A stretch of 64,000 bases of DNA from Dipteris shenzhenensis (taxonomy: Eukaryota), in the NCBI GenBank assembly GCA_047967505.1, contig CM106538.1, one strand, 5' to 3'. The notes below the pieces were generated by a model. The model was not told the DNA's origin. It did no database searches and was given only the letters and a program-made list of their open reading frames with translations. Below, piece after piece: positions 4,294 through 50,990 of this stretch (its first letter is position 1; each line of letters opens with the position of its first letter). The position numbers and the translations under genes were made by a program.

Positions 4294-4522
4294 CCATGCA
4301 CTTGGGACTCTAGCTCTGAGCACTTGATATTCTCATGCCACCCTCATGCTATTTTGCTACTTTTTTGCTATTTTGTACTAGTATAGCATTTTAGTACTCA
4401 ACAAGGGCCTTAGTGAGCCCTTTGCCCTAGCCCACAGTGGTTTGTATGAGTTACTTGATTCCGTACTTTGTCCCATAGGCCCGCGAGGCCTCCTGCGGAC
4501 GTCTCTCTCTGTCTCTCTCTCT

Positions 4523-4823
4523 CATGGCAGGAGGCATGGTCGATGGCCATGACTTCCATCATTTCTTTGGATCACAGACCCCTTAGGGAAGACGATGTTC
4601 CTCATATTTCATATTTTACATTTTGTATCTAGGCAATTTTGGTACTCTATTTCATTTCATTTTGTATCTAGGATTTTTGTAGCCATTTTTGGCATCTTAG
4701 CGGTATTACGATGAGGCCACCTAGTTGGCGCATCGTTGATGATGTATTTTCCTTTCGGATGATTTTGTGTCCCATAGGCCATGTATGGCCTTCCGTGGAC
4801 CTTTAATAAAATTTCTTTCTTCT

Positions 4824-4853
<30 letters not shown>
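4523..4853 (+). mobile_element. 5'-truncated RTE-X-like LINE 3' end inserted in the (CT)n tail of the preceding LINE
   Basis: Encodes MAGGMVDGHDFHHFFGSQTP*; near-identical to 47128-47440; stem-loop at 4769-4800 and (TTTC)/(CT)n tail. Confidence 0.85.
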
Positions 4854-4854
<1 letters not shown>

Positions 4855-5359
4855 GCAGTTCTCTTACGTTCCCTCTCACCCCTCGACTCAGCTCCATGCC
4901 CGCCTCCCCGCTTAGTTCTCCCGCTCACCTTTCAACTCAGCTCTCCACTCACCTCCTCGCTTAGCACTCCCGCTCAATGCTCCGCTCAGCTCTCGCGCTC
5001 ACCACTCCGCTCAGCGCTCACCTATCCCGCTAGCTCTCCGCTCAGCTTACCTCTCTTGTTCAGCTCTTTTGGTCGAGGGGGCGTAGATAGCAATATTGCA
5101 AGTTCCATCTGCCAAAGAGAACACTCCTAGCTGCGCTGAACCCCCAGCCCAACTAGGGGGTTAGTACAGCCAAGAGGTAGCAAGAGAATTTGCCAGCAAA
5201 GAGTGGCCCAGCCTAAACCCCCTCAACTCCAGCAGCACTGACCAGTAGAAACATATATGCCACGATTACAGCTCGAACACCCTCTCTATATGCATAGGTC
5301 TATGAATGAGGAGGTCTTTTTGACCGACCCATCATTAGGTATCATTAACATATTTTGTT

Positions 5360-5840
5360 CCTACAAGATCAGGTGAGAGAGTTGAAGATGGAACTGGTGG
5401 ATCCAATCACTAGAATCCAAGTGCTTGAAGGACTTGGTAAGCAGGAAGTAATAGATGACGTTGTCAAGCCTTGCAAGGCTTCCCCCTAACCCCGAGTTAG
5501 CCTCCACAGTCAAAGATTTAGTTCATACTGAAGTATAGACAGCCGAGAAGGAGGCCACTGTGGAGTTTGAAGCAAAGGCAAACAAAGTTGATATTCAAGA
5601 AGAGATCATAGAACATGAAGCTAGAGAGGATAATGCATTAAAAATCAGAATTGAGGGACTTCCGGACAGATGGTACAAAGAGGACTCATTTGATGATACC
5701 TTAGCACATGTCAATGCAGCTATGCCTAACATTGACTGGACAGCAAACGAGGATGACAAGCTTGACAACCCTAATGAAGATGGTGAAGCTAGAGCAGTTC
5801 GTATTGGTAAATGTAAAGGACATGCTGTCATTACATTCAA
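5360..5840 (+). pseudogene. Possible LINE ORF1 fragment
   Basis: Coiled-coil-like stretch followed by EAREDNALKIRIEGLPD, resembling the 'NLxIxGLPE' motif of LINE ORF1 RRM domains; interrupted. Confidence 0.4.
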
Positions 5841-6058
5841 TGTCATTACTTCAGTTTTTCAAGCCCACCTCATATGAGAATTAGTTATGGGATAGAGACG
5901 TTTGTCAGCATCAGCTTACAAGCCTACACATGTGGATTCAGTGGCACCTTGCTCAAGATTGCACTCACTAGTATCATCTTTCTTTGGCTTTTGCAGCACC
6001 ATTGCTTAACAAGTGGCACTTGGCTTCAAAAAATAGGCAGATCCCCAAAGCATTGGTC

Positions 6059-8719
6059 TGATGGGATATCTCAAGGTGTATGCCCCAGGCACACCTTGGT
6101 TTCTATGTGTATGTGCTAGAGGCACAGTTAGGTGCCCATAAGCACTGTTAGGTGGTGGTAGAAGCCACATAGGATGATTGAGAGAATCTAGGAGCAGATT
6201 GAGGAGATGATTGTGGAGCTCAGAGGTCATCAGCGATGTCAGTGATCATGTAAGAGGTGCCTACTTAAAGACCTCACCTTTCTTCATTCTATGAGCAAGA
6301 ATTCTCAGTTTGTGTTCAATCCATGCTTTCCTTTCAGTTCACCAACATGGTATCAGAGCCCTTTGATCCTCCTTGAGCCCATTTGTGCCACATCATCTTC
6401 TTCTTCTCCATCTTCTTCTTCTTCATCTTCACCATTTCTTCCCTTTCTTCCCAAATCTTGCTAAAGCTTGTTCTCCCTCGTTTCGCCGCCATTCTCCAAG
6501 CCCTTCCTGCTGGAGATACCCCTCGAATGGGCGAACTTCCACCTGCAAGCAATTGAAGAAAGGTTGTCGCTGCTGGTCGCCATTCCACGAAAATCGTCGA
6601 AACTGTCTTCTGCGTTTTCTCTGTGTCTGCTCCACCTTTCTCTAATTCCTTTCAGGGGAAGCTTCTCCATACCTTGGGCTATCTTGTGTTGAAATCTGAG
6701 CAGCAATGGTTGCATATTCAAGGAGAACAGAGCCAAAAACCAGTCGATTTTGATGACGCTCCAGCCAGCAATATCGCGCACCATTTCGCCCAACCTCTGT
6801 GCTAGATCTTCTTGGTATATGAGCTTTCTTTCGCTTCAGAAAGCCCTGTTTTCTTTGCTTTGAAGAGTGAGATACAAGCCCTCCAAGTTCAGGCCTCTGT
6901 TTTGGACTGTTTTGACAAGGTTGTGAGTTTGATGCTACATTAGATGCTACTTTAGCATTTCTGAGGTTTTAAAGTATTGAAAAGCATCAGTACAACTGTG
7001 GCTACAACTTTCTTTTAAGTTGATATACTTGGATTTGCTTGGAATACTTTCATTTAGTCACTTCTATGAAGCATGCAAGTGAAAGCATCATTGATTTGTA
7101 GTATGGATTTTGATTGCAAGCCTTTGCTACTCTAAATGCTTGTATTTTGAAGCTCTTCAACTCTTTCTAGCCTTGTAAGAGAGTAGACACTGCCCATTCT
7201 GGGTTAGACCCTCTCATGGCTACCATCTTGAATATGGATAAGTTCAATGGTAAGGGCTTTCACACATGGCAGATGAAGGTTAAGTTTGCATTGATGAGGG
7301 AAAACCTCTGGGGGCTTGTCAAACCGGCTTCAACTTCTTCTTCAACAGCCTCCAATGTTGGAGAATCCTCAGCTCCGACACACCCGGCAAGAGATCCTGC
7401 TAGAGAGGAGAAAGCCTATGGCACCATTGCTCTTGCTTTAGGAGATGACTATATTCATCACATCTCTGATTTGGAGTCTCCTTCTGAAGCTTGGCAGAAG
7501 CTTGATATTATTTTTGGTGCTAGCTCTCACATCTCAAAGTTGTCACTTAAGATTGCTTTCTTTGAATTAAAGATGGCTAGTGGCACTCCTTTGGCTGCCC
7601 ATGTCAATCATATGCGGAGTCTCATGACTCAACTTGCTTCTATCAACTCTTCAATCACTACAGATGATGCAATGGCAGTGTTGCTCAAGAGTATGCCTGA
7701 AGATTATGATCATGTTGTTACCACTTTGAAAAATCTTCCTAATCCTAATCTTGAAGGTCTCATTTCTGCTCTTCAAGAAGAAGAAAGGCACATGGAACTC
7801 CGGAGAGGCAATGACACAGCCTATGCCATAAAAATCCAAAAGGGCAAGTTTTCACCTTGCAAACATTGTGGAAAGACTAATCACCTCCCAAAAGACTGCT
7901 TCAAGATCAATCCATGCAAACACTATTGCAAAAACAATCACCATGAAAAGTTTTGTAGAGCCAAAAAGGAAGCAACTACAAAGTCAGAAATTGCCAATCT
8001 ACTTTCAGTTGATGTGCCTCCACAAGATGAGGCATCCTATGAAGATTATGCTTTTTGAATCATCTCCATATATGCTCCCGATCTCCCTTTTTTATGTTGA
8101 GTCAAGGTACTCAGCCTGGATAGTCCTCCAAAATGAATGAAATGAACTATTGTGTTTTGTAAACACCTCTGGTCACCATATGATGCAGGCCATGTGTATG
8201 TGTTTTACTCCATGGTACCTCCTGCAGACATTGTGTGCATGTACATGCAGGGGAGATAACCATTGGAAGGTCTTTTGTATCCCTTTTGTTTACTTCACAC
8301 CCTTGGGAATCCCTTGCTAGCATGAGAACCTAGCCATAGATTTATCCTTGACCACCATGAGATGGCATGAGAAACTATGAGACTAGATGTATCCTTGACA
8401 TAGTCTGAGGCATTCCCTTGAGGGGGGGTATGATGGGATATCTCAAGGTGTATGCCCCAGGCACACCTTGGTTTCTATGTGTGTGTGCTAGAGGCACAGT
8501 TAAGTGCCCATAAGCACTGTTAGGTGGTGGTAGAAGGCACATAGGATGATTAAGAGAATCTAGGAGCAGATTGAGGAGATGATTGTGGAGCTCAGAGGTC
8601 ATCAGTGATGTCAATGATCATGTAAGAGGTGCCTACTTAAGGACCTCACCTTTCTTCATTCTATGAGCAAGAATTCTCAGTTTGTGTTTACTCCATGCTT
8701 TCCTTTCAGTTCACCAACA
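6059..8719 (+). mobile_element. Gag-only copia-type LTR element (TR-GAG-like, element B)
   Basis: 289-bp LTRs at 6059-6347 and 8431-8719 (about 9 substitutions); TSD TGGTC; PBS TGGTATCAGAGCC at 6348; PPT GAGGGGGGG at about 8420-8428; no pol sequence. Confidence 0.95.
7216..8058 (+). CDS. Copia-type Gag with tandem zinc knuckles
   Basis: KFNGKGFHTWQMK N-terminus, LLKSMPEDY motif, CKHCGKTNHLPKDC plus a degenerate second knuckle; own ATG and TGA. Confidence 0.88.
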   Translation: MATILNMDKFNGKGFHTWQMKVKFALMRENLWGLVKPASTSSSTASNVGESSAPTHPARDPAREEKAYGTIALALGDDYIHHISDLESPSEAWQKLDIIFGASSHISKLSLKIAFFELKMASGTPLAAHVNHMRSLMTQLASINSSITTDDAMAVLLKSMPEDYDHVVTTLKNLPNPNLEGLISALQEEERHMELRRGNDTAYAIKIQKGKFSPCKHCGKTNHLPKDCFKINPCKHYCKNNHHEKFCRAKKEATTKSEIANLLSVDVPPQDEASYEDYAF

Positions 8720-10269: not shown

Positions 10270-11905
10270 ATGGAAGTTGAAGAAGAAGCTTCTAGGGCGG
10301 ATCCCGTAGAGTCGAGAGTCCGGCCGACCCCGCACGTGTTGCACCCAGCAGGCCATACACTGTCTGGAAGAATTGCATTATTGGAAAATGCTTTGCAACA
10401 GATTTTAGCGCAACAATTACAAGCAAAAGTAGGGCAATTTGAGCTCATAAAAATGGTTCATGGTATGTCTACTAGACCATCTCGTGAAGAGAAGGGTAAA
10501 GCTCCAATGAAGCCTAAATCCAGTGTTCATACGGTCGAGCCTAGGAGGGCTAAGGTGCCTAATAATGCCAATTATAGGCCAGAAAAGTATTCTGGTTGGA
10601 TGTATGACCGTAGTTCCGATATCATAGACCTGGTTACACAAATGGGACGAGGCCTTCGCCATTTGTGAAATCAGGAATGATATGAAGAAAATTCGCGAGG
10701 CCACCCATATGTTTAATGAGGCAGCAAATAGGTGGTGGATAAGACAACAGAAAGATGGAGTGGCATTCACTACTTGGGAGGGGTTTAAATAAGAATTTAG
10801 AAAGCACTTCTTACCTCCTGACGAAGCATCCCGAGCTTGGGATCAGTATCGAAACCTTCGTCAGAGAAATTTATCAGTGGCGGAATACACTGATAAGTTC
10901 AGAGAAAGTGTAATGAAAGTTTACGAACCTCTACATCAGTCAGTCCAAGTAAAAGATTTCATCTTTGAACTGAATGATCGGATCAAGATGGAAGTTCGGG
11001 CTAAGTATGCGAACACGCTAGATGAAGCAATTGCCATAGCCCTGAACTATGAGGATGCCAAAGGGAACATACCAAGTGGGTTTGTGCAGGTTGTGACTCG
11101 GTATGAGTACCCAAAGAAAACGGGGTTTAAGAAGAAGTGGATTAGCAAAGGGAGTGCCTCACAGCCTAGTGGTCAAGCCAAGCAGGCGAAGCCAATTGAG
11201 ACTCCTAAACCAAGTACCACCATTGGAGTGAAAAAAAAAGTAACACCAATGGCAGCTCGGGCTTGGTCGAAGTTAAACCCTAAACCTAGAGCAAAGAGAA
11301 AAAGCAAGGAGAGAAGCCTTGTGTTTTGGATGCCTTCAACCTCATCAGTGGAAAGATTGTCCACAAAATAAAGATCGTCGGATGGCTGAGATGTTGATCT
11401 CAGAATGCGACGTGGAAATGGAGGAAAGTCCCAAAGCAGAACAGATGAAGATTCAACTAGCGGGATCTTCTCAAAGGTCAGTACCTGTTTTGTTATGTAT
11501 GTCTGTTGCTAAGCTAGTAACCAATGCACCTGATAATGTCCTATCAAAGCCCGCAGCAATGGGGTATACAGCCTTTAACAATACGGACCTAATTAAGATG
11601 AAAGGACAAGTAGCCAATCATGATGTCATTGTGTTGTTTGACTCAACGTCAACGCACAATGTAATTAACTCCAAGCTTATAAAGAGGCTAAAATTAAAGA
11701 CTAGTCCATCTGACTATGCATATGCAGTCAGAATGGCAGACGGAAGTTCAACTGAAGTATGGGACCAAAGGGTTACCCAGTTAGAACTTCGATTTCAGGA
11801 CTATACAGAGAAGCTTGATTTTGAAATGACAAAGCTTGCTCACGCAGATATAGCCCTGGGTAAGGCTTGGCATTCTAGGAAGAACCCAACCATAGATTGG
11901 AATCT
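10270..11905 (+). pseudogene. Ty3/gypsy gag-protease remnant
   Basis: Fragmented gag (AANRWW...F..HFLP, LRQ..SVAEY), knuckle CFGCLQPHQWKDC, protease VLFDSTSTHNVI...DIALGKAW...NPTIDW; frameshifts and stops. Confidence 0.8.
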
Positions 11906-12254
11906 GTGTGTGTGTCAAAGATACCTCAAGGCCAAGCTTGCAGAACCAAGCACAACGCTGTTGGAGCACTCATTACCCTACTCTCAAATCGAGTGCAATG
12001 CATAGATGATGTCTAGCCAGATGTCGACTAGGGTGGCTGCAAAGATCATAAAGCTGGCCGATGCACCTTGCAACCCAAATACACCAAACTATGACAGTTG
12101 TATCAGAGATTGTCCTACACACGTGGAATTCCAATGAGATGATGTGGCAAGGTCACTTGCACACATGGTAGATAAGTGATATTGACTTTGGTAGGTAGAA
12201 ACATATAGCACGTCAATCTGTTGGTTTGTGCACATGTACATGGTGAATTCTCTC

Positions 12255-15200
12255 TGTAGGCCATCTTCTCTCGGTTCTAGTAATGCCCTATGGGCCATGG
12301 TATGTGCCTTGTAGGCATAGTTATAGGCACTTAGTATTTTAGTGCCTTTTATGCCACATAGGACATTTAGTCCTATGTGACACCTAGGACACTTAGTCCT
12401 AGGGTCTAGCTTCAAGTACTATGTACTTTTCATTTTATTATAATCTAGTTGACGTGACGGCTTATTTCCCTCGACTCCTATACTTGCTCTTTTGCACATC
12501 GCCCCTACAGTGGTATCAGAGCCCAGCAGGTTGAACCTGCTTCCTGTCCCCGGACCTTCATTCCTCCCTATGCCCCCTTCCATACAGTCCGTACAACTGT
12601 ACAGACTGTCGTACAAATACATACGGATCCCACATCAGATCCCGTACGTCTTCTACTAGCTGCCCGTTTGATCCGTATGTACCTGCGTAGTACCTGCTCC
12701 GTACGTTGTACCTGTGCCGTGCATTGTACTTGTTCCGTACAAGTGTATTTGCAAAGTACCTGCTCCGTACAATCATTACTGCGATGTACATGCGTCGTAC
12801 AAAGGTACCTGCGCCGTACCTATGTTGTACAGCTGTACATGCAGAGCAGCTGTTCCGTACAAGATACCCACTTCTACAGTGGTATTCTGTACATTGATAT
12901 TCCGTATAGGTATACCTGCAGTGCTTACCGTACAGCTTGTACCTACTCCAGGTGTTCCGTACAGTTTCACACGTGCGAAACTGTCTTCAGGTTCTGTACT
13001 TGCTTTGGCATTGGCTATGAACCAGGTACTTGGTTCTTGCTTGCTACACCTTTTCTGGATCTCACTGCAGTCATCTATAGATATTTGCAGTGTTGGGGCT
13101 TTCAGTTCTTTTCACCTCCTTTGGTTGCAATTTCTTGCAAGAACATTGGAGTTTTGGGATTTGGTCTTCAATTTCTTGTCTAGATTGCAGTCCATTGGGT
13201 CAAATTGCAGGACATTGAGTCACATTTGCAGGACATTGGGTTAGATTGCAATACATTGGGTCACATTTGCAAAAATCTCAGCAAAATTTGGGCCTTTTCT
13301 GTATTTGCCCTCTTTTTGGCCTATTTGCCCTCATTAAATTTGGGGCTTTTGCCAAATTTGCTGTTTTTTGCAATGAACATTGCTTGACACAGTCACAATT
13401 TGGGTCAAATTTGCGTTTGCCCTTTGATTTGGGCTGGAAATTTGCAGAACATTTACTTGCAGACATTTGCTGTCATTTTTGGACAGCCAGCTCTTTGCAG
13501 TGATAGCCTTGAGGCTATTTGTGTTTTCAGGTCTCTTCTTTTCAGAGTATCCCATTTGCACTGGCTGGCAACAATCATGATCTATTTGGCATTCTTCATG
13601 AAGATGATAAGTTGGATGGCACCAACTATCCAATGTGGTCTTATCTCATGAAACATATTCTTGTTGCAAGGCATTTTTGGAATATTGTTTATGGGATTGA
13701 TCTAAGGCCAGCCAATGCTACAATGGCTGCCCCTATTGCTGGTCCCTCTGCAGAGGGTACTCCTGCTGATGCCTTATCCTCTAGCACCCCTGCTACTGCT
13801 CCTCCAACTCAAGAACAATCAAGATGGGATGCAAGAGATGCAAATGCACATTCCTGTATTGCTTTATCATGCAAGAGAATCATTATTCCACACATCCGGT
13901 CTGCAAAGGACAGCAAAGGATGCTTGGGACAAATTGGCTTCTCTTTATCAGATTCGCAATGAGGCATGTGTTGCATATTTAAGAAGGCAATTGCAGGAAG
14001 TCAGTATGAATGAAGGTGACTCTATGGATGCATACTTGACAAAGGTCAAGGAACTCATGGAACAACTTGCCAATATTGATGAGGTGGTGCCAAATTCTCA
14101 GCTTGTCAGTACCACATTGAATGGACTGCCAGATACATATCAAGGGTTTGCTACAACCCTTCGATTAGTGGCCATGGGTAATCCAGACCACTACTCTTTT
14201 GATCAGCTAGTCACTTTGCTTTTGAAGGAAGAGCAAAGTCGAGCTAATAGACAAGCTATTATTCCTGATCATTCATTTGCAAACAGCAGACAGGAAGAGG
14301 CAAGGCTTCCAAGCCTATGGGCAAGCCTAAATATGGGCCTAACAGTGGCAATCCCTCCAATGCATCTAAAAATACAGCAGATAAGTCAAAGAAGAAAAGA
14401 TGCAACTATTGTCGCAAGCCTCGGCATGAAATTTCAGAATGCAGGAAGTGCATTGCTTCACACGCAATTGAATCCCACGAGCCAACAGATGCCTCACATG
14501 CACATGCTCTCCAGGATGATTGGGCATGGCCTGTCCATTGCTCCTTTTATCCCTCCCAAGTTGATGCATTGTTTACTGCTAATGATGCTCAGTCTTGGTA
14601 TTTTGATAGTGGTGCTTCCAAGCACATCACATCTTGCAGACAGTTGTTTCATTCCTTAGCTAATGCACCTCGTGGGGGAACTGTCACATGTGCTCACAAT
14701 GCCTCCTGTGCTGTAAAGGGAATTGGAGATGCGCAGCTCACATCCATTTCAAGCCATCCTATCACTCTGACTAATGTTCTTTTCGTGCCTGGAATAGAAG
14801 TCAACTTGATTTCAATTTCAGCAATTGCCACTTCAGGTTTCAATGTGATTTTTGATGGATACAGATGCCTAGTATATGATCTTCATGATGACAATGCCAT
14901 AGTTCTCACTGGCACTTTGAAAAAGGGGCTTTATCACCTTGATGATCACTCAGCTGCACTCTCTATTGAAGCATTTGCTATTTCAGATTCACAGCTTGCT
15001 GAAACTCATCTTTGGCATGAGAGAATGGGTCATCTCAATTATAGAGCTCTTGCCAAGTTACATTCACAGGACATGGCAAATGATGTACCTCAAATTCACA
15101 CAGTTTCCAAACATGTGTGTGAGGGTTGTCTTTTGGGTAAGATGCATTGGTTTCCTTTTCAAAAGAATTGTCCAAAACTCTCACAAAGGAAATTGCAGCT

Positions 15201-27795: not shown

Positions 27796-28134
27796 AGTTT
27801 CAGGTGTTCTAGAGCCTGCCAGAGAATTCGTTTTTACCCAAGGGCTAGTTTCAGGTGATCCGGGGCCTGCCAAGGAAATTTGTTTTTACCCAGGGGCCAG
27901 TTTCAGGTGTTCCAGAGCCTGCCATGGAAATTCGTTTTTACCCAGTGGCCAGTTTCAGGTGTTCCAGAGCTTGCCACGGAAATTCGTTTTTACCCAGGGG
28001 CCAGTTTCAGGTGATCCAGGGCCTCCCAGGGAAATTCGTTTTGACCCAGGGGCTAGTTTCAGGTGTTCCAGAGCCTGCCAATGAAACTCGTTTTTACCCA
28101 GGGGCCAGTTCCAAGTGATCCAGGGCCTGCCAGA
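27796..28134 (+). repeat. 52-bp tandem repeat (about 6.5 copies) in the 5' LTR of F
   Basis: Unit GAAATTCGTTTTTACCCAGGGGCCAGTTTCAGGTGTTCCAGAGCCTGCCATG starts at 27875, 27927, 27979, 28031, 28083. Confidence 0.95.
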
Positions 28135-29534: not shown

Positions 29535-29541
29535 AAAAAAC

Positions 29542-29582
<41 letters not shown>

Positions 29583-37819: not shown

Positions 37820-40800
37820 ATAAAATTTGAGACATTCAGTGGGGTGCAAGACAAACTTAAGGCCTTGACCTTTTTGCAGCAGTTCGATGCAGCCTACACA
37901 AGAGGGAATTTCACAGAGTCATCCAAAGCACGCCGGGCTGCAAGTTTTCTAAAGGGGAATGCACTTCAGTGGTGGACAACTATGCGTATGCAAAACACTG
38001 CACCAAACATGTGGGTAGGTTTCAAGCATGTGTTTTCAGCCACGTGGCTTACCACGACTTTTAAAGTGGCTATCATGATTGCTTGGCATGAGCTGAATTC
38101 CAATACTTGCCGTAATTTAGAGGAGTATAACAGCAAGTTTTGGGCGGCTTTGTTGCCCGTTAGCTCCTACCTGAAGGAATAGGAAGTGAGTGAGAGCAAG
38201 AGAGATTTAGAGAGCAGGAAGCTTGCAATAGAATAGAGTGTAAAGAGTACAACTCAAAGTGAGAAAAGATAAGGTTTTGTCCTAGTGACAAAACCTTAGT
38301 AGTCACTAACCATAGTTAGTGAACTAACTGCGGTTAGGGGGAAAAACCTCTTAAAGAGGGAAAAGTGCCCCTAACTAGCTTATTATATTACATTGGTCAC
38401 TGCTGAATTATATCTATAATTCTAACACCCCCCTGCAGTGCCAATGTCATGTACAAGGCTGATCAATCGCCAAACGGATATAAGTTCAGGGCACTGCGAA
38501 ATGCCTCAAACTTTTCACGTGGTAGTGCTTTGGTGAAAATATCTGCAACGTTGTCATGTGTGGACACAAAGATCATACTGATCTCTCCTGCATGCAACTT
38601 CTCTCTGACGTAGTGATAGTGAACCTCAATGTGCTTCGTGCGAGCATGAAACACTGGATTCTTTGCCACTGCAATGGCACTCTGACTATCAGTGAGAATT
38701 GGAGAAGGACCCTCCAAAGACAGATGAAGATCAGCAAATAAACGTCTCAGCCAGACACATTCAACTGTTGCTGTGAAAGCTGCCCTGTACTCAGCTTCAC
38801 ATGATGAGGTAGCCACTGTAGATTGTTTCTTGCTCAGCCATGAAATGCAAGACTTACCCAAAAAGAAACAATTGCCACTAGTGGACTGCCTAGTGTCATA
38901 ATCACCAGCCCAATCTGAATCACTGTAGGCATGCATCTGCAAGTCACCCCCCCTGGGAAATAGTAAGCCAAAAGATTTTGTGCCCTGCAAATAACGGAAG
39001 ATGCGCTTAACTGCCTGCCAATGCATAGTTTTTGGGCTGTGCATGTACCTGCTCACCTGAGATACTGCAAACTGAATATCAGGTCTAGTGTTGCAGAGAT
39101 ATATGAGGCATCCAACAGCTTGACTGTAAAGTGTGGCATCAACTGATTCTCCTGCATCATGCATTGTGAGTTTCAGCCCCGGCTCCATAGGAGTGGCTAT
39201 GGGCTTACACTCTTGCATGTTAAATCTGTCCAAGAGTTTCTGTACATACTTGGACTGAGACATAACAGTGCCACGTCTCTCATGAGAGAACTGGATCCCC
39301 AAATAAAAGTGAAGCAGCCCCAAATCTGACATGTCAAAGTTGGTCTGCAAATCAGCTTTGAAATCTGCAATTTTTTCTTCATTGGACCCTGTGAGCAGTA
39401 AGTCATCGACATAAAGAAGGATGACTAATATTTCCCCCCCATCCATCTTGATGTAGAGGGTGCTCTCAGTAGGACTATTGTGCAGCCCCTTGCTGGTCAA
39501 AAAGGCATGTATCTTAGCATACCATGCACGAGGGGCCTGTTTCAGCCCATATAAAGCTTTATTGAGTTTGCATACTTGAAGTGCATTTGCTGTAATTTCA
39601 AAGCCCGGAGGTGGTTTGACATACACCTCTTCCAGCAAGTCCCCATTTAAGAAGGCTGTTTTTATGTCCAACTGATGAACATTCCACTCAAAATGTGCAG
39701 CCATTGCAATTACTGATCGGATGGTGGTCATCCGGGATGTAGGAGCAAATGTCTCCTCATAATCTATGCCCTTTTTCTGAGCATAGCCCTTAGCAACCAG
39801 CCTGGCCTTATATCTGTCAATGGAGCCATCTGGCTTCCGTTTGACTTTAAATACCCATCGTGTGCCAATAGCATGTTTACCCTGTGGCAAGTCCACAACA
39901 TCCCAAGTCTGATTTTTTGCAATGGACTGCAACTCATCGTGCATGGCATTCATCCAATGCACATTACCTTTTGCTTCTTCAAATGTGGCAGGCTCCTCCT
40001 CATCAAGGAGAGTACCTGCATATGCTGATTCAACTGAATTAGCACCTTCCATGTGCCTTGCTGCACTGCGAGTCCTGCCAGGTAACGGAGCATCAAGTTT
40101 ACTCTCCCTGAGAGTCTGTAACAGCCAGTTTGGGACTGTTTTTGCTGCATGTATGTCTGCAATTTCTTGCTGCACCACTTGTTCCACTGCCTGTGGAGGA
40201 GGCAAGACATCTTGTGGCGGAACTGAAGCATTTGAAGGTTGCTGTAAATTCTGATTTGGATCAGAAAAATCAGCAGAGGAACCCAAAGCAATGGGTAGCA
40301 ACCCTTGAAAGACATCCTCTGAAGATGAAGGCATTTGAAATTCAGCCTGAGTGTGAGCTGAATTTTCAGAAAATATCACATCTCTACTTACAATGATTTT
40401 GCGTGTAGCAGGATTGTAGAGACGATACCCCTTGCTTTCTGCACTGTATCCAACAAATATGCATTTGATGGCTTTATCTGACAATTTGTGCCTAAATTCA
40501 ACTGGCACATGTGCATAGGCAAGGCATCCAAAGACTCGGAAGTGATCCACTGAAGGCTTCTTGTCATTCCAGACCTCAAAAGGAGTTTTTGTTTTTAAAG
40601 CCTTAGTGGGAGCCCTGTTCAAAATGTAATTGGCACACATCAAACCCTCTAGCCAGAATTTATGAGGCATGTGTTTGCTTTTCAGCATACATCTGTCCAT
40701 CTCCATGAGGGTTCTATTTTTCCTCTCAGCTTTGCCATTTTGCTAAGGGGTCAGCCTGACTGTGAGCTGATGCACAATACCCTTTTGCTTGAGAAAAGCA

Positions 40801-43800
40801 TCAAATTCTGCAGATAGGTATTCCCCACCTCTATCCGTGCGTAATGTCTGTATCCTGAGTCCGGTTTCATTTTCAACCATGGCTGAAAAGTGTTTAAATA
40901 CCGTGAACACTTCAGATTTCTTTTTCAGCCCATAAACCCAAGTAAAATTGGAGTAGTCATCAATAAATGTGACAAAGTAGAGATGACCACCCAATGACGG
41001 AGTCCTCATGGGACCACAGACATCACTGTGTATAAGCTGCAATTTGCGAACAGCTTTAACTGAACCATCCTTCTTGAAGGGGAATCTATGCATCTTACCT
41101 AAAATGCACCCTTCACAGGCATGTGGAGGAGGTATCTCAAGAGGTGGCAATGCATCAACCATTGAAAATTTCTGAAGTGTCATTAAGCTGTTGTAATGCA
41201 TGTGGCCATATCTCGCATGCCATAATTCTGCATTTTGCATGACAGCTGTAGGAGTAGAAACTGCCAGAGCATGGGCTGCTCTTTTCTCAAAAATATCAAG
41301 CTGAAAAAGCCCACGCAGCAGAGTACCAGATAACATTAAGGCATAGTTAGCTTCCCTGTCTCGGACAGCACATTTGTCATCCTCAAAGATGACCTGAAAT
41401 CCCCCTCTGTTAAGAGTGGACACTGAAAGGAGATTTTTGGTTATGCCAAGCACATATAAGACATCAGAAAGTCTGAAAATTGAGCCATCAATTGCAGTGA
41501 GCTCAACTTCTCCTGTGCCACGTACTGAATATGAGGAGTTGTTGGCACAAGTGACTTTCTTACCAACAGGAGGTGGATGCAAGGAAGTAAAAAGACACTT
41601 CCTAGAAGTGATGTGCTTGGATGCACCGCTATCAAAATACCATGTGTTCAGTGTTTCATTAACACTGAAAGCAGATGCATCTGTAGAAGAGTCAAAGCTG
41701 CAAGTCAAAAAAGCATATGTATCATCACTGCAAGAGGCTGTACTATCCCAAGCATCTGGAACAGCCAACCTAGAATCTGAAATGCAAGATAAAAAGGCAT
41801 AATCTTGACCAACAAAGTTGGCTGTAGCATCCCCACTATCAGATGCACAAGGGGCTGAATCTGAAACAGCCATTCCTGAGCTGTTTTTCTTTTCTTTTGC
41901 AATCCTTTTCCTGCATTCTGCTATGTGATGACCTGGCTTTTTGCAGTAGTGACAAAAACCCTTCTTTTTGGGCTTACTTGCATCACTTTTAGCCTTTTGT
42001 GAAGGCTGTCCTGACCCACTGGAAGGCTGATTTGCTGCTGTCTTTGCCTGTCCCTTTGTTTTTGATTTAAATTTTGAGAGCATGGCTTGTTCACCTGCAC
42101 GTGAAGCCAAATTTTTCCTGGTCTGCTCTTCCTGAAGCAGAAGTCCTATCAACTCATGAAAAGTGAGAGGATTTGCACCCCCCCTCAATGATAAATTCAG
42201 CGAAGTGTGAAAGTTGAGATAAGACTCAGGAAGAGAATTCAGAGTGGTTGTAATCATCTCTGAATCAGGAACAATTTCATCTATGTTTAACAATTGCTCT
42301 CTGAGATCCTGTAGCTTTGTGAGGTGGACTGACATGGAGTCACCCTCCTCCATATGTGTATTGCTCAACTCTCTTTTTAAGAGAGATACCCTGGCATCAT
42401 TCCGTGCTGCATACATGCTTTCCAAAATATCCCACGCTGCCCTGGAGGTCTTACACGACCGGATATGCGGAATGATTGATCTTTTCACTGAAAGAGAGAT
42501 GCATGACAAGGCTAAGGCATCCCGTGAATCCCATCTTTTCTGCTCTGGAGTATTGACTGTAGCTGCACCAACAATTGTCCTGCAGCTGCACCCTGTGCAC
42601 GACCTCTTCCACCTCCTTGCTGAGGAGGGGTAGCAGGTGCAATATCTGCTGGTCGGATTTCATCCCCATTGACATAATCCCATAAATTGCGAGAAATCAG
42701 AATATTACGTACCATGAAACTCCAGAGGGAGTAGTTGGTACCATCCAACTTGTCTTCCTGTGAAAGACCACCGAACTGGAACTCATTCTGATTTTGATGG
42801 GCCATATCTGAGAAAGAGATTGAAGCAGATACAAAGCTGAATTCCCTTACTGGGAATAAAATGCACAACTCCCAAAAACACAGCCAAGCACGGGCTGTAT
42901 ATGCAACTTAGATTTCTGTACTTGAGCTGTCAGCAATCTGTCCAAGCATCAAACACTCTCCAAAATCTGCCAAAAGTGTTCCAAACACTCCAAGAAAGGC
43001 AGTATGTACTGAATACTCCAAAAAATGCTCTCTCAACACAAAAGCCCCAATTTGTGGCTAGAAATTGCAGCCAGAAAGGGGCAAAATTACTAAAAACCCC
43101 AAATCTGCAATTTTTAAACAAAAGCCCCAAATTTCAGACTAGATCTGCAATTTTGCTCCAGATGTAGCTCCAAAATTGCACAATGATTGCAATGTCTGCA
43201 ATATGCAAAATGCCCCAAATGTACTCCCAAACAACTGAACCAAACTATGGTTTTCTGCAAGATGTGCCTACCAAAGAACACCTGTGGCTGAAGGCAACCT
43301 GTGTAAATCTGCAAGTACAGATCTGAAAATGCAGAAATGCACACAAATCTGTGAAGAGTGCAGGTGGTACGGTACAGTACTAACTGTACGGTGGTACGGT
43401 ACAGTACGGACTGTACGGTACAGTTTGTACGATCAGTACGACAAGATTGTCCAAGTGCTCCTGCTCAAGTACGGCGATGTACGGATGGCGATGTACGGAA
43501 TCTTGCGCAGGTACGATGACCTGCACTGTGCTGTACGGGCGATCTGTACGGAGCAACGACGATCTATACGGGAGCAGTACGGATGTTTTACGGGAGCTGT
43601 ACGGAGGTATTACGGGAGCTATACGACACTATGCGTCAGGATTCCGTACAGTCGTACGGACTGTACGGACAGGTTGGAGTAGACTAAAGCTTGAGGCTAA
43701 GCGCTGGAACTGAAGGGAGCAATGAGCTCAAAGCTCTTGAACCTACTCTGATACCAAATGAAGGAATAGGAAGTGAGTGAGAGCAAGAGAGATTTAGAGA

Positions 43801-44770: not shown

Positions 44771-45707
44771 GGATTCCCCTAGACCTTGGTTCCGGATGCG
44801 CAATTCCTGGAAGTGGTCTATGTCGTGCATCATTGGCCGCGATGTACGTCACACGTGGTGTACTAGTCACAGTGGGTGTACTAGTCGCTTGGTTTGCAAT
44901 GCTATACGTATTTGTTATCTGTAGCTCTACAAATCGTATATGCATTGTTGGTGATCTGTTGGCGGCATGGTTGGCTGTCCACTCAAATTTGGATTTGATA
45001 TCTCAGCTACTTCAAATGTTCATGATGTACAACTAGTGTGGGTCTGAAGAGATCGCCACAGGTGGGTAAAGCATGCATGAACTATTCCTGGGAAGTACAG
45101 TCTGAGTATCTATGTGCATGCATTAAGTGTTTACATATGCTCATGATGTACCATTGGCAGTGGGTCCTTAGGGATGGCCATACGTGAGGTGGATCGGACA
45201 TCGTCGGGAGCATATTGTTTGTGTATGCATGTATGCATGTATGTGGAATGTTTGCTTGTCTTTTGCCTGACAAACATTGTAGTGTTTCCACTTGGTTTTC
45301 TTTTGCAGGCAATCAAGGACATTTGCCTTCTTTCAAGAGGGGGGTATGTCACGAGGACGTGAAATTTTGAGACTTTTAATTTGCGACTCCTGTAATTTGT
45401 GCATGACTGCCTTGAGCCTCTGGGACGCGAGGGTCTAGCCATGGGGCGGGACTTGGGGAATTAAAATTCCTAGTGGGCCCTTGGAAATAGTGAATGTGCG
45501 CCCAATTACTAGGCAATTAATTCCTAGGGCCAAAGTGTGCAACAAGGGGCCCAAAAGAGTGGTGCAATTAAAAAACTGCTTTTAAAGACCAAAAGAGTGG
45601 TGCAATTAAAAAACACTGCTTTTTGGAGCCTAGGGCTTTAAAAGGGGGAGGGAGCCCTTCTTTTGGATGCAGTTGGCCAGATCAGTTCCAAAGGAGCCAG
45701 AGCTTCA

Positions 45708-46046
45708 GTTTCAGGTGTTCCAGAGCCTGCCAGGGAAATTCGTGTTTACCCAGGGGCTAGTTTCAAGTGATCCAGGGCCTGCCTGGGAAATCCATTTTTA
45801 CCCAAGGGCCAGTTTTAGGTGTTCCAGAGCCTGCCATGGAAATTCAATTTTACCCAGGGTCCAATTTCAGGTGTTCTAGAGCCTGCCACAGAAATTCGTT
45901 TTTACCCAGGGGCCAGTTTCAGGTGATCCAGGGCCTACCAAGGAAATTCGTTTTTACCCAGGGGCCAGTTTCAAGTGTTCCAAAGCCTGCCAGGGAAATT
46001 CGTTTTTACCCAGGAGCCAGTTCCAGGTGATCCAGGGCGTGCCAGA
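45708..46046 (+). repeat. 52-bp tandem repeat (about 6.5 copies) in the 3' LTR of F
   Basis: Same unit at 45735, 45787, 45839, 45891, 45943, 45995. Confidence 0.95.
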
Positions 46047-46206
46047 GCAAATCGCAATTGATCCAGGAGTCTGTTGCAGGTGGCGATTTCTGCCAGTGTG
46101 TCTATTCTAGTTTGCAATTTGCTTTTGGGCTCTTCTAGGCTGTTCCAGGTGCCTGCGATTGGTTCTAGGGCTGTTCCAGGAAATCTGGACTTGACCAGGC
46201 TACTCC

Positions 46207-46494
46207 GGGCACCGAGCGACAACTCAATAGACACAGATACGAGAGCTTCTCACATCTCATCAGAGAGCCACCAGGTCACCTAGATATACAGAACCTGAGC
46301 ATGTACTAGGAGCGCTAGGTCTGAGCACCTGATACTCTGCTACTCTGGTATTTTGTTCACTAGTTTAGCAATTTAGCTTTTAGCGAGGGTCATAGTGAAC
46401 CCTTTGCTTGAGCCCTCGGTGGCATGTATGAGTTACCTTTTGGTTTTGCACTTTGTCTCATAGGCCCGCAAGGCCTTTTGCAGATGTTAATACA

Positions 46495-46535
<41 letters not shown>

Positions 46536-46988
46536 TTGAGATTTTGTTGAGATCATTAGCTTAGCTTAGTACTCAAGAAGGGCCTTAACGAGCCCTTTGC
46601 TTCGACCCATGGCGGCTTGTATGAGTTATTCTGCTGATTGTAGTTTCTCTCATAGGCACGTGAGGTCTCCCAAAGACGTTAATACAACACACACACACAC
46701 ACTCTCTCTCTCTCTCTCTCTCTAACTCTAACACACATATACCTCTGTGGGGCCGCTTGCATGGACCAGTGTCAGCCAGCCCTGATGGTGACTGACCCGA
46801 GTATGAGGATGATGAGGATGTTGATGACGATGATGATGATGTCACTACTAATGATATGACTATGTACTACTTAGCATTCATCATGGGTGATGATGTTTGT
46901 TTTGTAGCTCCACCCTTTCTGCTTGATTTGTATTAGCTTTCTATCAGTCTCATAGACCCATCGGTCTTCCAAAGACTTTAATAAACTT

Positions 46989-47043
<55 letters not shown>

Positions 47044-47460
47044 GCCAGCAGATTTTCGGAGGAGATTGCTCCATGGAGACTTGGCACCGCCAGCAGCCCA
47101 TTTGACACTTGCCCAGATCTTCACACTCATGGCAGGAGGCATGGTCGATGGCCATGACTTCCATCATTTCTTTGGATCACAGACCCCTTAGGGAAGACGA
47201 TGTTCCTCATATTCCATATTTTACATTTTGTATCTAGGCAATTTTGGTACTCTATTTCATTTCATTTTGTATCTAGGATTTTTGTAGCCATTTTTGGCAT
47301 CTTAGCGGTATTACGATGAGGCCACCTAGTTGGCGCATCGTTGATGATGTATTTTCCTTTCGGATGATTTTGTGTCCCATAGGCCATGTATGGCCTTGGC
47401 CTTCCGTGGACCTTTAATAAAATTTCTTTCTTTCTTTCTTTCACACACACACACACACAC
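46207..47460 (+). mobile_element. Stack of four 5'-truncated RTE-X-like LINE 3' ends, each ending in a stem-loop plus microsatellite
   Basis: Units at about 46207-46530, 46531-46722, 46723-47040 and 47041-47460; hairpins at 46455, about 46647, 46947 and 47374. Confidence 0.85.
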
Positions 47461-49960
47461 AAAAACCCCAACGCCTCCCCCTACCTATGGGGGCGGGGAC
47501 TGTGAGACTCAGAATACCAAGACCTTGTCCTATACCATTTGGAACGGTAATGGTACCTTATGGTCAAAACCAGGTCAAGACATAGTCTTTTATACAGAGA
47601 CACACCAGAGCCCAGAGCGTCCACTACCAGCTGTCAGTGGCCTTATAGAGATGAGGCGAGGATACGGGTGGAGTACGAAGTTCAAGAGTGGCAGCACGAG
47701 TGTAAAACTGCCTATTGTCGTGCCGACACTCTACAAGTTCTCTTTTCGGGGCAAACTGGGTAGAGAGAAGAGACATTCATTCCAAATTCCTATGGATCCG
47801 GATGCGGCGTACGGACAGCAAGGACTTGTTCATTGCCATGTGCTACTTTCCGCCTAAGACCTCCCACTTTGCTCGGGATATCTAGGAGGAGACTTGGAGG
47901 TCACCTTATGCAGCACTCTATCCACTCATTGTGGAGGACTTCTCGAGTCGCGGAGAAGTCCTTATTGGGGACTTTAATGCATGAATATGGGTGCGTCTGG
48001 TGCCACTTCTTGATTTCAGAGAAGATTCAATCTTGCTGCAAGACTTCGACTTAAATGATGTAGGTATGTCACGAACTCAGCTGATAGGTGGGCCCCGGGG
48101 GCGGGCGCTACTGGATTTGGGTAGGATGCATGATCTCATTATTTACAATGGTCTCAACCGATGGCCCTCCTCAAGTCATTTCACCTGTTTTCCACAGGGG
48201 GGTTTTCCAACGTAGTCGATTACATCATGGGATCCCCCCCCTTTCCTTCTCATATCACTGACTTCACTATTGCACCACCTCCTCCAAGAGCAGACCACAC
48301 TTACCTCTTCTTTCGCATCTCTACTCCTCTACCACATACACCGCCGATCGTTCATACCACTTACACTTTGACCGCATTCTTTCACCTGGTTAATCTGCTC
48401 GACTTTATACATTGCTCACATATATAGATTTCATAGCTCTTCTAGAGGATCGTGTAGCTTTGATCACTCGCTCACTTCACGAGGCTGCACTTCACGCCTT
48501 TCCCTACACTACCCGCTCCTCGTGTCCACCACCTCTTGGGACTGTCCTAGGTGGTACGACAATGAGTGTAAGACTCTATGCCGCCAACTCAAATTCGAAA
48601 CCAAACATAGCCTTCCAAATGAACCAGAGATGATACGTGAGTATCGTCGATTGGTCCGCCGGAAGAAGTAGGCTTTTATACACCGGAACAAGGAGGAGCT
48701 TCTAAATGTCCTGTCTAGTAACAACTCCAAAGGCTTCTCACGGAAATTCCTTGAACGACGGTCCCCCTCCCCTCTCACAAGTACTCAAGTTTGGCATGCC
48801 TATGCACCCACATTATATGGCATCCCTCATCAGCCCACTCCTGACCTGTCGTACTTACCCCGCCCCACCTTTTGCACTCTTTTCACTAAGGTGGTGTTAA
48901 GGACGCTGTAATGAAGCTTCACAATGGCCAAGCGAAAGATCATGAGGGTTTATGTACTGAATTTATTAAATATGGGATTTATATCCCAGCCCTGATCTTA
49001 GCGAAGCTCTTTAATGAAGCTATTTGCCTTGGCTTTCCATGTACCTGGACTCTTAACACCATTTCACCTATTCATCCCATGAACTAAAAGACCATCATGA
49101 TAGGATATCACATGTCCCTATGCATCAGTACTTGACACTGAGGTTAGCCATTTCGCAGATATGCAAGGGCTTTGAGCAAAGGGGCAAGCTCAGTTCCGAC
49201 ATGATCACAGGACCATGGACCATATACTCACACTCAGGTGCCCATTGAGGAGCCCACAGCATGGAAGCACAGGGTTTATTGTTGCTTTGTGAATTTCTGC
49301 AAAGCCTTTGATACCGCCACATTAGACGACTGCAAGAGTTGGGATATGACAAGGAGACCATTTGGGCGGTCATGGCACTTTATGAGAGTCTCAGGCAAAG
49401 TCCGGAAGGGGGCTGGATAGACATATGAGATCATGAGTACCATTGGGGTGAAACAAGTGTGTCCTATTTCACCCACCCTATTTGGCCTCTACATAGATGA
49501 GCTCGAGACTTTTATGCAGACTTTGGGAGGGCCTGATTGTTCCCTTACTGGTTCTTTGATTCTCTCTCTCTCTCAGAGTACGATCGTAGAGTTCGTCCAG
49601 GAAGAGCATGTTGCTATCCCAGCCACAGTTAGCAGGAGAGGAAGAGACCCTGGGACCGAGACGCAGCACACCCAACAGAGGACAGATGCATAGATCACAC
49701 TCACTGACATCTCCTCTATTTTCAGAACTGGGGTGCAGCCGACCGGGGTTACAGTAGCGCTCGTCAGGCATCGAGTAGCGGCCAGGAGGGCACAACGGAT
49801 TACTCATCCAGATAGCAGACATCGATCAATTACGGGCTTCTTGCCTATACTACCACTGGCTGACTTGATGATACAGATTCTACTATACCCGGATGATTTA
49901 GTCCTCCTGTCATCTTCGCCAAAGGGACTACAGAGACATCTAGATGATTTTGGCCGTAGT
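47461..49960 (+). mobile_element. Heavily degenerate RTE-X-like LINE (EN and RT)
   Basis: IWNGNG...TETHQSPERPLP, GDFNA, VVDYIMG, CCFVNFCKAFD, VKQVCPISPTLFGLYIDE, ILLYPDDLV; colinear with the LINE at 22.6-26.8 kb; extra insertion at the (CT)n near 49561. Confidence 0.85.
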
Positions 49961-50088
49961 TTGTTGCTCCTACTTGCTCCAACCACTCAGCCCCTCCTCT
50001 CACCCACTCAGCCCCCTTGCAAGCCCCCATTTTATTTGAATATTTTGGTATGTTTCCATGTGATTTGATGACGTGTCTTATGACATGG

Positions 50089-50189
50089 CGTTCCCGTTCC
50101 CGTTCCCGTTCCCCCATTCCCTCTTCCCAATACGTTCCCGTTCCGACCCCCCACATTCCCGAAACGTTCCCGTTCCCTGGTAACTATGA
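50089..50189 (+). repeat. CGTTCC-rich subterminal repeat, possible DNA-transposon (hAT/MITE-like) end
   Basis: (CGTTCC)n runs ending ...CCCTGGTAACTATG; no partner end found. Confidence 0.4.
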
Positions 50190-50835
50190 TATCAAAGAGC
50201 AGCAAGATGGGACCACCGCACCACAGGGTACTGAGGTAGACCGAGCGCAAAGACATGTCTCAGATTTCTATGCATTTGACTCAGCTCCAGGGCACTCTGG
50301 GGTAGAGGAGGAAGAGCTAGCCGACTTGAGAGATATATGGATCGATGGAGGGATCCGACAAAGCACTGTTGGACGAGGGACATAGAGACCGTACACAACA
50401 CCACAGTCGACCAGAGCACACACGATCGAGGTTTGATCTATTGCAGCTCTCCTTAGGGGAGATCGACCGAGGCGAGGCGTCACCCTTGACATAGCCCATC
50501 GGATCTAGAGATCTAGGAGACCACGCCCTCCACCACCACGGGAGAGAGCCCGACAAAAGCAGATACGTGAGCTCTTTGCATCTCATCAGAGAGCCACCAT
50601 GGAGCCTAGCTACGTGGAGCCAGTTCATGCACTTGGGACTCTAGCTCTGAGCACTTGATATTTCATGCCACCCTCATGCTATTTTGCTACTTTTTTGCTA
50701 TTTTGTACTAGTATAGCATTTTAGGACTCAGCAAGGGCCTTAGTGAGCACTCTGCCCCAGCCCACAGTGGTCTGTATGAGTGAGTTGATTCCGTACCTTG
50801 TCCCATAGGCTTGCGAGGCCTCCTGCGGACGTTAA

Positions 50836-50869
<34 letters not shown>

Positions 50870-50990
50870 TAGCGCGCCCTTTGCCTCAGCCCTTTGTGGC
50901 TTGTATGAGTTTTCCCCTTTGTCCCATAGGCCAGCGAGGTTTCCCGTGGACATTAATCTCTCTCTCTCTCTTTCTCTCTCTCTCTTTTCA
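50190..50990 (+). mobile_element. Two stacked RTE-X-like LINE 3' ends
   Basis: 50190-50865 is homologous to 878-1311 joined to 4299-4522; a second short tail spans about 50870-50990; hairpins at 50800 and 50921, each followed by TAAT(CT)n. Confidence 0.88.

Follow-up and report, generated by a model that had tools for sequence, protein, structure and literature searches.

A covarying two-helix module at the 3′ ends of diverged LINEs in the fern Dipteris shenzhenensis: a candidate template-recognition element

How do long interspersed nuclear elements (LINEs) that have diverged widely in their proteins and untranslated regions come to end in the same short, foldable sequence, and what might that sequence do? 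The question is raised by a stretch of 64,000 nucleotides (nt) of Dipteris shenzhenensis DNA (assembly GCA_047967505.1, contig CM106538.1), the whole of which is referred to here as the window, and in which LINE copies terminate in the module GTCY-CAT-[5-bp stem, 4-8 nt loop]-5 nt-RGAC. A first examination of the letters, termed here the original prediction, had proposed that this module is a covarying stem-loop and a signal for the LINE reverse transcriptase (RT). The position, conservation, structure and covariation of the module are direct observations. By analogy with better-studied LINEs, it probably serves as the template-recognition element of a stringent-type LINE, its carriers forming one clade of elements whose single open reading frame (ORF) encodes an apurinic/apyrimidinic endonuclease (APE) and an RT.

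Structure and covariation of the module

Ten copies of the module are present in the window, as judged by a regular-expression scan, direct reading and alignment. They lie on the plus strand at 4470, 4769, 31958, 46455, 46647, 46947, 47374, 50800 and 50921 and on the minus strand at 22713-22682, in each case where the original prediction had placed them. A loose regular expression gives 16 matches, of which eight are tail copies (4470, 4769, 31958, 46455, 46947, 50800, 50921 and 22713 on the minus strand) and eight are look-alikes; the copies at 46647 and 47374 fall outside these matches and were found by direct reading and with a covariance model. The former is decayed, with CTCT in place of GTCY and two broken pairs, and the latter has a 6-nt GGCCTT duplication relative to its near-twin at 4769. 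As had been proposed, the CAT of the module is invariant (10/10 copies), the apical loop varies freely, from 4 to 8 nt, and the tails continue into NNTAAT(A) and a microsatellite. TAAT stands 2-3 nt 3′ of the outer helix in nine of the ten copies, being missing at 4470, and reads TAATAAA in lineages F2a and F3 (below); the pyrimidine-rich microsatellite, which is (CT)n, (CTTT)n, (CA)n(CT)n or (ATTCT)n(CT)n, follows in all ten.

The similarity of their 3′ untranslated regions (UTRs) groups the ten copies into about six lineages, so that the claim of at least ten divergent tails was right as to the number of copies and overstated their independence:

Lineage F1a: copies at 4470, 50800 and 50921
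Lineage F1b: copies at 46455 and 46647
Lineage F2a: copies at 4769 and 47374, 97.5% identical
Lineage F2b: copy at 22713
Lineage F3: copy at 46947
Lineage F4: copy at 31958

The two F2a copies differ in their truncation points and flanks and therefore represent two insertions of one family.

In the sense transcript the module consists of two stacked helices, an outer helix of 4 bp (GUCY/RGAC) and an inner helix of 5 bp (RGRYC/GRYCY), separated by an asymmetric internal loop with CAU on its 5′ side and YYNRN on its 3′ side. Across the ten sequences 96.7% of the 90 pair cells are paired, a figure that falls to 20-53% when the 3′ partner is displaced by 1-3 columns. Both sides have changed in three of the nine pairs, from C-G to U-A in the outer helix (three sequences) and, in the inner helix, from G-C to A-U, and from A-U to G-C with a G·U intermediate; the paired changes first quoted for this element, GTCC/GGAC versus GTCT/AGAC and AGGCC/GGCCT versus AGACC/GGTCT, are real. 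None of 500 shuffles of the ten sequences reaches the observed covariation score or percentage paired. When only one sequence per lineage is kept, 98.1% of 54 cells are paired and the covariation score is reached by 5 of 500 shuffles. RNAalifold predicts both helices unprompted, and minimum free energy (MFE) folds of the single sequences hold both helices in nine of the ten copies, and in seven of the ten the C of CAU also pairs with the fourth residue of the 5-nt strand, a G. Folded within 130 nt of context, the module is kept as a separate domain in five of the six lineage representatives.

The cells that depart from Watson-Crick pairing are also informative. There are ten, including three broken cells as against seven wobbles, and the ratio of seven G·U or U·G to one A·C (one-sided binomial p = 0.035) favours pairing in sense-strand RNA over pairing in duplex DNA or in the complement. 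A kink-turn reading of the CAU loop was tried and rejected, as by inspection this is a 3x5 internal loop without the tandem G·A pairs of a kink-turn.

Outside the module, the 3′ UTRs cannot be aligned between lineages, which agrees with the earlier suggestion that upstream UTRs diverge while the module persists. Local alignment scores over the upstream 300 nt are 11-19 between lineages, compared with 12.6 +/- 2.3 (maximum 20) in shuffles, and the few scores above that range, which involve 46947, 46647 and 50921, arise because the upstream sequence overlaps neighbouring array members. An alignment of the six lineages has 13 invariant columns within the module and TAAT box, and none among the 20 aligned upstream columns.

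Within lineages, further upstream features can be seen. The F1 copies have a second hairpin (AAGGGC ... GCCCTT) approximately 50-65 nt upstream of the module, at 4403-4422, 46388-46407, 46578-46597 and 50733-50752, with one C-G to U-A compensatory change in the 46455 copy, and they share an invariant 10-nt block, TGTATGAGTT, approximately 30 nt upstream of the module. The F2 sequences, that is the two F2a fragments and the F2b element, have an upstream hairpin different from that of F1. These hairpins were considered as part of the common module and set aside: there is one per lineage, but they are unalignable between lineages.

The number of copies also exceeds what shuffled sequence gives. 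The 12-nt 5′ half of the module, GTCYCATRGRYC, has 16 matches in the window with at most one mismatch, compared with 3.79 +/- 1.93 in shuffles, and none of 100 shuffles reaches 16. Ten matches are exact, eight of them in the tails and the others at 26738 and 60457. The first of these two, 26738-26767 on the plus strand, was rejected as a twelfth tail, being the antisense of a LINE start-codon region (that of element L_A, below) with an unpaired inner helix, and goes unreported by the covariance models. A cmsearch run with filters off and a model of all ten copies returns exactly those ten, at E values of 1.5e-13 to 7.7e-10, the next match having E 0.55. As the copies found are those that went into the model, this search is circular. 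For that reason a second model was made from seven copies, with lineages F3 and F4 and the 47374 twin omitted. It recovers all three held-out copies, 46947 with 29.4 bits (E 1.1e-5), 31958 with 23.7 bits (E 4.5e-4) and 47374 with 39.8 bits, as against 12.9 bits (E 0.5) for the best background match. The 60457 copy scores 15.7 bits (E 0.55) with the ten-copy model and 11.2 bits (E 1.6) with the seven-copy model.

Searches of other collections gave no counterpart. Rfam 15 has no match in the whole window at its gathering thresholds, and a search of 46200-47500 and 22550-22950 at E <= 10 gives matches mainly to repeat runs and flanks, with none centred on the module. The motif pattern has no match in a prokaryotic genome collection, where tblastn confirmed none of the 32 peptide-pattern matches to the protein of L_A; both results are expected and uninformative.

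Module-bearing LINEs and their insertion pattern

Does the module occur independently of LINE 3′ ends? In this window it does not, as each of the ten lies at the end of LINE sequence. Four are continuous with ORF2 or C-terminal coding sequence, as judged by Pfam, tblastn and blastn (elements L_A, L_B, L_C and L_G), and the other six end 5′-truncated fragments of approximately 80 to approximately 420 nt, five of which match the 3′ UTRs or C-terminal coding regions of the long copies; the F3 fragment has no relative in the window. The elements, with an eleventh, decayed copy of the module, are as follows:

1-1311, plus strand: body of L_G, with C-terminal coding region and 3′ UTR; runs off the left end of the window and continues at 4295-4523
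4470-4500, plus strand: module of lineage F1a, ending L_G; no TAAT; (CT)n tail to 4523
4524-4857, plus strand: D1, a 5′-truncated F2a fragment; module 4769-4800, then TAATAAA and a (CTTT)/(CT)n tail
22640-26841, minus strand: L_A, a near full-length single-ORF LINE of lineage F2b, ~4.2 kb; module 22713-22682
29580-32030, plus strand: L_B, a LINE of lineage F4; RT ORF 30022-31662; module 31958-31990
46225-46530, plus strand: 5′-truncated F1b fragment; module 46455-46485 with the outer helix closed by G·U, then TAATACACAT and (CT)17
46531-46723, plus strand: 5′-truncated F1b fragment; decayed module 46647-46677; (CA)n(CT)n tail
46735-47040, plus strand: F3 fragment, 5′ limit uncertain; module 46947-46976, then TAATAAA and (CT)26
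47041-47460, plus strand: D2, an F2a fragment longer than D1; module 47374-47411; (CTTT)n(CA)n tail
47461-50869, plus strand: L_C, a decayed single-ORF F1a LINE, ~3.4 kb, with a full-length 5′ end; module 50800-50830, then TAAT and (CT)n
50870-50990, plus strand: the shortest fragment, ~80 nt, F1-like; module 50921-50951 with two pairs kept as G·U, then TAAT and (CT)n
60457-60520, plus strand: eleventh, decayed copy; 5′ half GTCTCATAGGCC intact; inner helix of 4 bp

L_A is the most complete of these, with an APE and RT ORF at 24313-26757 (814 amino acids, aa) and a C-terminal ORF at 22933-23976 (347 aa) that has a CCHC-like motif. Its 3′ UTR is approximately 220 nt long, its module is followed by TAATACA, (CTTT)6 and (CT)4, and its 5′ end abuts (CT)9. 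L_C has a putative ATG at 47487, with APE sequence from 47516 and RT sequence to ~49945. L_G, which is split by a copia-type long terminal repeat (LTR) element at 1312-4293, resembles L_C by blastn (876-1311 with 50189-50629, 85%; 4295-4523 with 50626-50857, 92.7%), and its C-terminal coding region is 53% identical in aa to the C-terminus of L_A (tblastn). The module of L_B is followed by TAATACAAC, (ATTCT)3 and (CT)5, and the 5′ end of this element lies directly after (CT)19. The 5′ part of L_B, 29583-30098, is rearranged, with an RT segment in forward orientation at 29583-29783 (94% aa) and inverted at 29761-30098 (76-89% aa) before the main RT frame, and this resembles an inversion or duplication made at insertion. 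Among the fragments, that of F3 carries the compensatory variant with GTCT/AGAC and AGACC/GGTCT. The decayed copy at 60457 is preceded, approximately 575 nt upstream, by weak homology to a LINE C-terminus at 59583-59897.

The arrangement of the copies is ordered. From 46225 to 50990 there are six elements of five lineages, head-to-tail and in the same orientation, each beginning where the previous tail ends, and pairs of the same type occur at 4295-4857 and 50800-50990. Nine element 5′ ends can be placed. Six of them come directly after (CT)n (D1, which follows the (CT)n of L_G, D2, L_A, L_B and the fragments at 46531 and 50870), and (CT)>=6 runs make up 0.47% of the window; of the remainder, L_C follows (CTTT)n(CA)n, that of F3 is uncertain, and the 46225 fragment, the left-most array member, has a 5′ junction away from any microsatellite. 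No module lies upstream of the (CT)n runs before L_A and L_B, which makes the repeat, rather than the module, the preferred target. Both of these elements also have a short (CT)n after their own tails, and flanking (CT)n fits priming by a (CU)n-type RNA tail that pairs with a nicked (GA)n strand. The layout of the arrays points to insertion at (CT)n repeats or to template jumping. That tail repeats guide the choice of cleavage site, or priming, by base pairing is a proposal made for RTE-related elements in passages of PMC6007223. A further parallel is Kibi, an APE-type LINE that targets (TC)n according to part of PMC3812793: the window LINEs likewise lie inside (TC)n/(CT)n in same-orientation arrays, a likeness of insertion pattern only. 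Unlike for Kibi, the (CT)n preference comes from one window, and one of the nine junctions is off the repeat.

To which group of LINEs do these elements belong? L_A and L_C begin approximately 25-100 nt upstream of the ORF/APE start, directly after another repeat, and the element therefore has a single ORF, in which an N-terminal APE is joined to the RT, without ORF1; a CCHC-like motif lies C-terminal to the RT. Of the database relatives, P0001 has 1225 aa and P0002 has 1217. A CCHC gag-like ORF at 28617-29168 was considered as part of the module-bearing LINE and rejected, as it matches an L1-type element at 61865-62409 (90.8%). RT identities are 32-42% between L_A and L_B, ~39-45% between L_A and L_C and ~30% between L_B and L_C. 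In a quick maximum-likelihood tree of 44 RT rows, comprising the three window copies and the 41 of 42 homologues that aligned over more than 150 residues, L_A, L_B and L_C are joined in a single clade by the only close relatives from the database, P0001-P0003, apart from the 38 other homologues (support of 97 in the Shimodaira-Hasegawa-like approximate likelihood ratio test, SH-aLRT); the branch lengths of L_B and L_C are inflated, because both are pseudogenes. The segment between APE and RT is strongly basic and conserved, reading WYDEEC...RRLVRRKKRQFLA in L_A, P0001, P0002 and P0003, and the APE domain of L_A ends ...CADHAL..., in which Asp-His appears by inspection to be kept. PDB matches to the RT include R2 at E 2e-25 and human L1 ORF2p at E 2e-19, a PDB search with the APE domain alone gave only spurious WD40 repeat matches, and the ESM Atlas returned only generic APE+RT clusters (Ctenophora, Arthropoda, Chlorophyta) without clade information.

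The RTE and RTEX groups were reportedly defined by Malik and Eickbush in 1998 and by Kapitonov et al. in 2009. The original prediction spoke of an RTE-X-like group, a putative label with which the single-ORF build and microsatellite tails of the window LINEs are compatible, both being features that fit the RTE group. Less in keeping with it are the CCHC-like motif after the RT and the tails themselves, which differ from the (TTG)n/(GTT)n of angiosperm RTE elements (PMC3747384, Table 3; PMC6007223) and are here (CT)n, (CTTT)n, (CA)n or (ATTCT)n. Angiosperm RTE elements have an Asp to Gln substitution at endonuclease (EN) residue 229, as given in a section of PMC6007223, and the green-algal RTEX families tabulated in PMC3472496 (Table 1) all have microsatellite tails. 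RepeatMasker also assigns sequence to RTE-X in the fern Ceratopteris, whose table has 8,733 'RTE-X' and 19,047 'L2' pieces (PMC6890710, Table 2). The window LINEs do not look like plant L1, since the C-terminal ORF of L_A has no Pfam family, and hence no zf-RVT, and the copies end in microsatellites instead of poly(A). An L1-type LINE of the window (zf-RVT, 61233-61904, minus strand) ends in A13, without the module. L1-type copies with zf-RVT, the CCHC gag-like ORF1, the A13 tail and no GTCYCAT module are found at 60807-63151 (minus strand), 36356-37215 (plus strand) and 28617-29168 (plus strand), the last of these being similar to 61865-62409 (minus strand).

Proposed template recognition and its alternatives

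Recognition of a 3′ stem-loop is textbook knowledge for stringent LINEs, and earlier work is said to have dealt with the 3′-tail stem-loop of UnaL2 from the eel. The module resembles what passages of PMC4176376 describe for the stringent L2-clade elements UnaL2, ZfL2-1 and ZfL2-2 of eel and zebrafish, in which a short hairpin at the extreme 3′ end, before a tandem-repeat tail, is kept in 5′-truncated copies. The same passages describe the ORF2 of stringent LINEs (ZfL2) as binding the 3′ stem-loop via a segment between EN and RT, and the corresponding segment of the window LINEs is, likewise, basic and conserved. There are also differences. In UnaL2 and ZfL2, as far as those passages go, specificity resides in the loop and each LINE tells its own tail from others, whereas here it is the CAU internal loop that is invariant and the apical loop varies; and here, unlike there, one module is common to lineages with RT identities of ~30-45%.

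In the mechanism that we favour, the element's own ORF protein would bind the module, likely through contacts with the helices and the CAU loop rather than with the apical loop, and the basic APE-RT segment would be the natural candidate for the binding region, by analogy with ZfL2. The (CU)n/(CUUU)n tail would anneal to a (GA)n strand nicked at the target, and target-primed reverse transcription would begin in the tail. If the proposal holds, the module is kept in every 5′-truncated copy because the RT recognises it, and new copies arise at (CT)n runs, those in older tails among them, because the tail pairs with the target.

The novelty of the module was also considered, as the original prediction had been made without awareness of any earlier description. 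A search of open-access full text, with Repbase outside its range, found no description of the motif or of fern LINE tails, and a literature search with motif strings gave only unrelated matches (primers or guides). The type of feature, by contrast, is already published for plants, so the claim stands for the motif in the open-access literature searched and not for the kind of signal. Nishiyama and Ohshima (2018, PMC6007223), in the sections drawn on here, report a 3′ hairpin with compensatory mutations in angiosperm RTE LINEs and the short interspersed nuclear elements (SINEs) resembling Au. These too are plant single-ORF LINEs with a conserved 3′ hairpin, compensatory changes and a microsatellite-like tail; by the same sections their hairpin is single and 18 nt long, with (GTT)n or T-stretch tails and SINE partners, while the window module has two helices in ~31 nt, is followed by a UAAU box and by (CT)n/(CTTT)n tails, and no SINE was seen with it, a separation made by description. 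Passages of Ohshima (2012, PMC3472496; 2013, PMC3747384) describe a 3′ stem-loop with compensatory changes in a monocot L1 lineage and in maize and sorghum SINEs, inferred there to be of the stringent type. That hairpin is of the L1 clade and has, in these passages, a conserved loop (UCU) and 3′ flank (CGAG), whereas the apical loop of the window module varies, and the two are again set apart by description. What distinguishes the present module is that its two helices flank an invariant internal loop while the apical loop varies freely, together with the UAAU box, the (CT)n-type tails and its presence in deeply diverged lineages.

The general picture of LINE biology is unchanged by these observations, and their interest lies elsewhere. 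Little beyond RepeatMasker tables is available on the LINEs of seed-free plants, and the module is a marker with which to find and delimit these LINEs and any SINEs that borrow their tails, as well as a concrete RNA for testing template choice by a plant LINE protein. Being common to deeply diverged lineages, it bears on whether related LINE families might mobilise one another, and the LINEs that bear it account for many of the (CT)n-type microsatellites in the window.

Several points weigh against template recognition. The function is assigned by analogy, the apical loop is unconserved, unlike that of UnaL2 and ZfL2, and no SINE partner with the tail is seen in this one window, which has no tRNA-like genes and in which all short copies match LINE 3′ UTRs. 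The number of compensatory pairs is reached by 36 of 500 shuffles with the ten sequences and by 37 of 500 with one per lineage, and some six lineages from one 64-kb window are too small a sample for a statistic of R-scape grade. Thermodynamic stability is unremarkable, with z-scores of -0.75 to -4.76, and only the 46947 copy beats all 200 of its shuffles. The MFE fold of the 46647 copy lacks the module, in the 130-nt context of L_B a different GUCC, further upstream, captures the outer 3′ strand, and the decayed copy at 60457 has lost its outer 3′ strand. The module is also largely conserved in primary sequence, so that a sequence-specific role independent of structure is possible for its CAU and UAAU parts.

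Could the module instead be mainly a signal for 3′-end formation or RNA stability, a hairpin with a UAAUAAA-like near-upstream element that is not recognised by the RT? The regular TAAT box 3′ of the outer helix, with its TAATAAA form in F2a and F3, is what this would lead one to expect, and T54 and A56 of the box are invariant across the six lineages. We nevertheless regard it as unlikely, as the copies end in microsatellites rather than poly(A), the 4470 copy was inserted despite missing TAAT, and neither the covariation of the helices nor the retention of the module in every 5′-truncated copy, across such diverged RTs, would be explained; the two roles could coexist. Passive similarity, due to recent common ancestry or to exchange of tails between LINE families by recombination or template switching, with no selection on structure, is a different kind of explanation. 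Close relatives do exist in the window, such as D1 with D2 and L_G with L_C, and related sequences may exceed shuffle controls without any structure. The likeness between lineages stops at the edges of the module, however, where a recent exchange would have carried flanks with it; changes are biased towards those that preserve pairing (the three compensatory pairs and seven wobbles, against three broken cells); and the control with a slid partner, which keeps the relatedness, still falls to at most 53% paired. On these grounds passive similarity appears very improbable.

The module might, finally, act on DNA or complementary DNA (cDNA), either as an endonuclease site near the target or as a site on the first-strand cDNA for priming the second strand, with the palindromic inner helix and an inverted copy near the 5′ end of L_A forming terminal inverted signals. 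New array copies do lie 10-60 nt downstream of an older module, and there is complementarity between the two ends of the elements. The start-codon region of L_A (sense, 26750-26738), GGGCCCATGGGAC, matches the reverse complement of the 5′ half of the element's own 3′ module over 13 nt without a mismatch, a length that none of 2000 shuffles reaches, and the ATG region of L_C (47480-47495), CCTATGGG, is complementary over 8 nt to its own CCCATAGG (66 of 2000 shuffles). This 5′ complementarity comes from two elements only. The module is, moreover, dispensable in the target, since L_A and L_B follow (CT)n runs with none upstream, and G·U cells outnumber A·C cells 7:1, which speaks for pairing in sense RNA, so that we think an action on DNA or cDNA decidedly unlikely.

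The complementarity at the start codon has some features of its own. Its variable base matches within each element, L_A and L_C, and the relative P0003 likewise starts with MG. With two cases, it may be due to chance, to the palindrome or to start-codon context. A more speculative scheme, to which we give only a small chance, is that of a two-ended system, in which a module of ~45 nt (two helices, CAU loop and UAAU box) is held across RTs of ~30-45% identity and the start region (CCYAUGGGAC) pairs with the 5′ half of the module. This would circularise the RNA, or would make the end of the first-strand cDNA a copy of the RT-binding sequence that recruits the protein for the second strand; pairing of tail and target would steer insertions into (CT)n and so build the head-to-tail arrays.

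Other contents of the window

The window is almost entirely transposable-element sequence, and no host gene was seen in it. The copia-type LTR element inserted in the 3′ UTR of L_G (1312-4293, plus strand) is short, with a gag-only ORF at 2580-3899 and LTRs at 1312-1581 and 4028-4293 (96.7%), and a related LTR is found at 12255-12484. An unclassified repeat occurs as two copies that are 86.6% identical, 27396-28297 and 45347-46209 (plus strand), each with six to seven units of a 52-bp tandem repeat (27795-28140; 45706-46045). The second copy adjoins the F1b fragment at 46225. A reading of 45706-46485 as an internal-deletion derivative, with the 5′ UTR joined to the 3′ UTR, was rejected because 45347-46209 is this separate repeat. 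Copia-type LTR fragments with gag, protease, integrase and RVT_2 sequence lie at 7171-8058, 11277-12005, 13706-16152, 17097-19228 and 38463-42659 (minus strand). The best named matches to the copia polyprotein of the window are two proteins from the fern Adiantum, at 58% and 55%, with angiosperm matches mostly at 34-49%.

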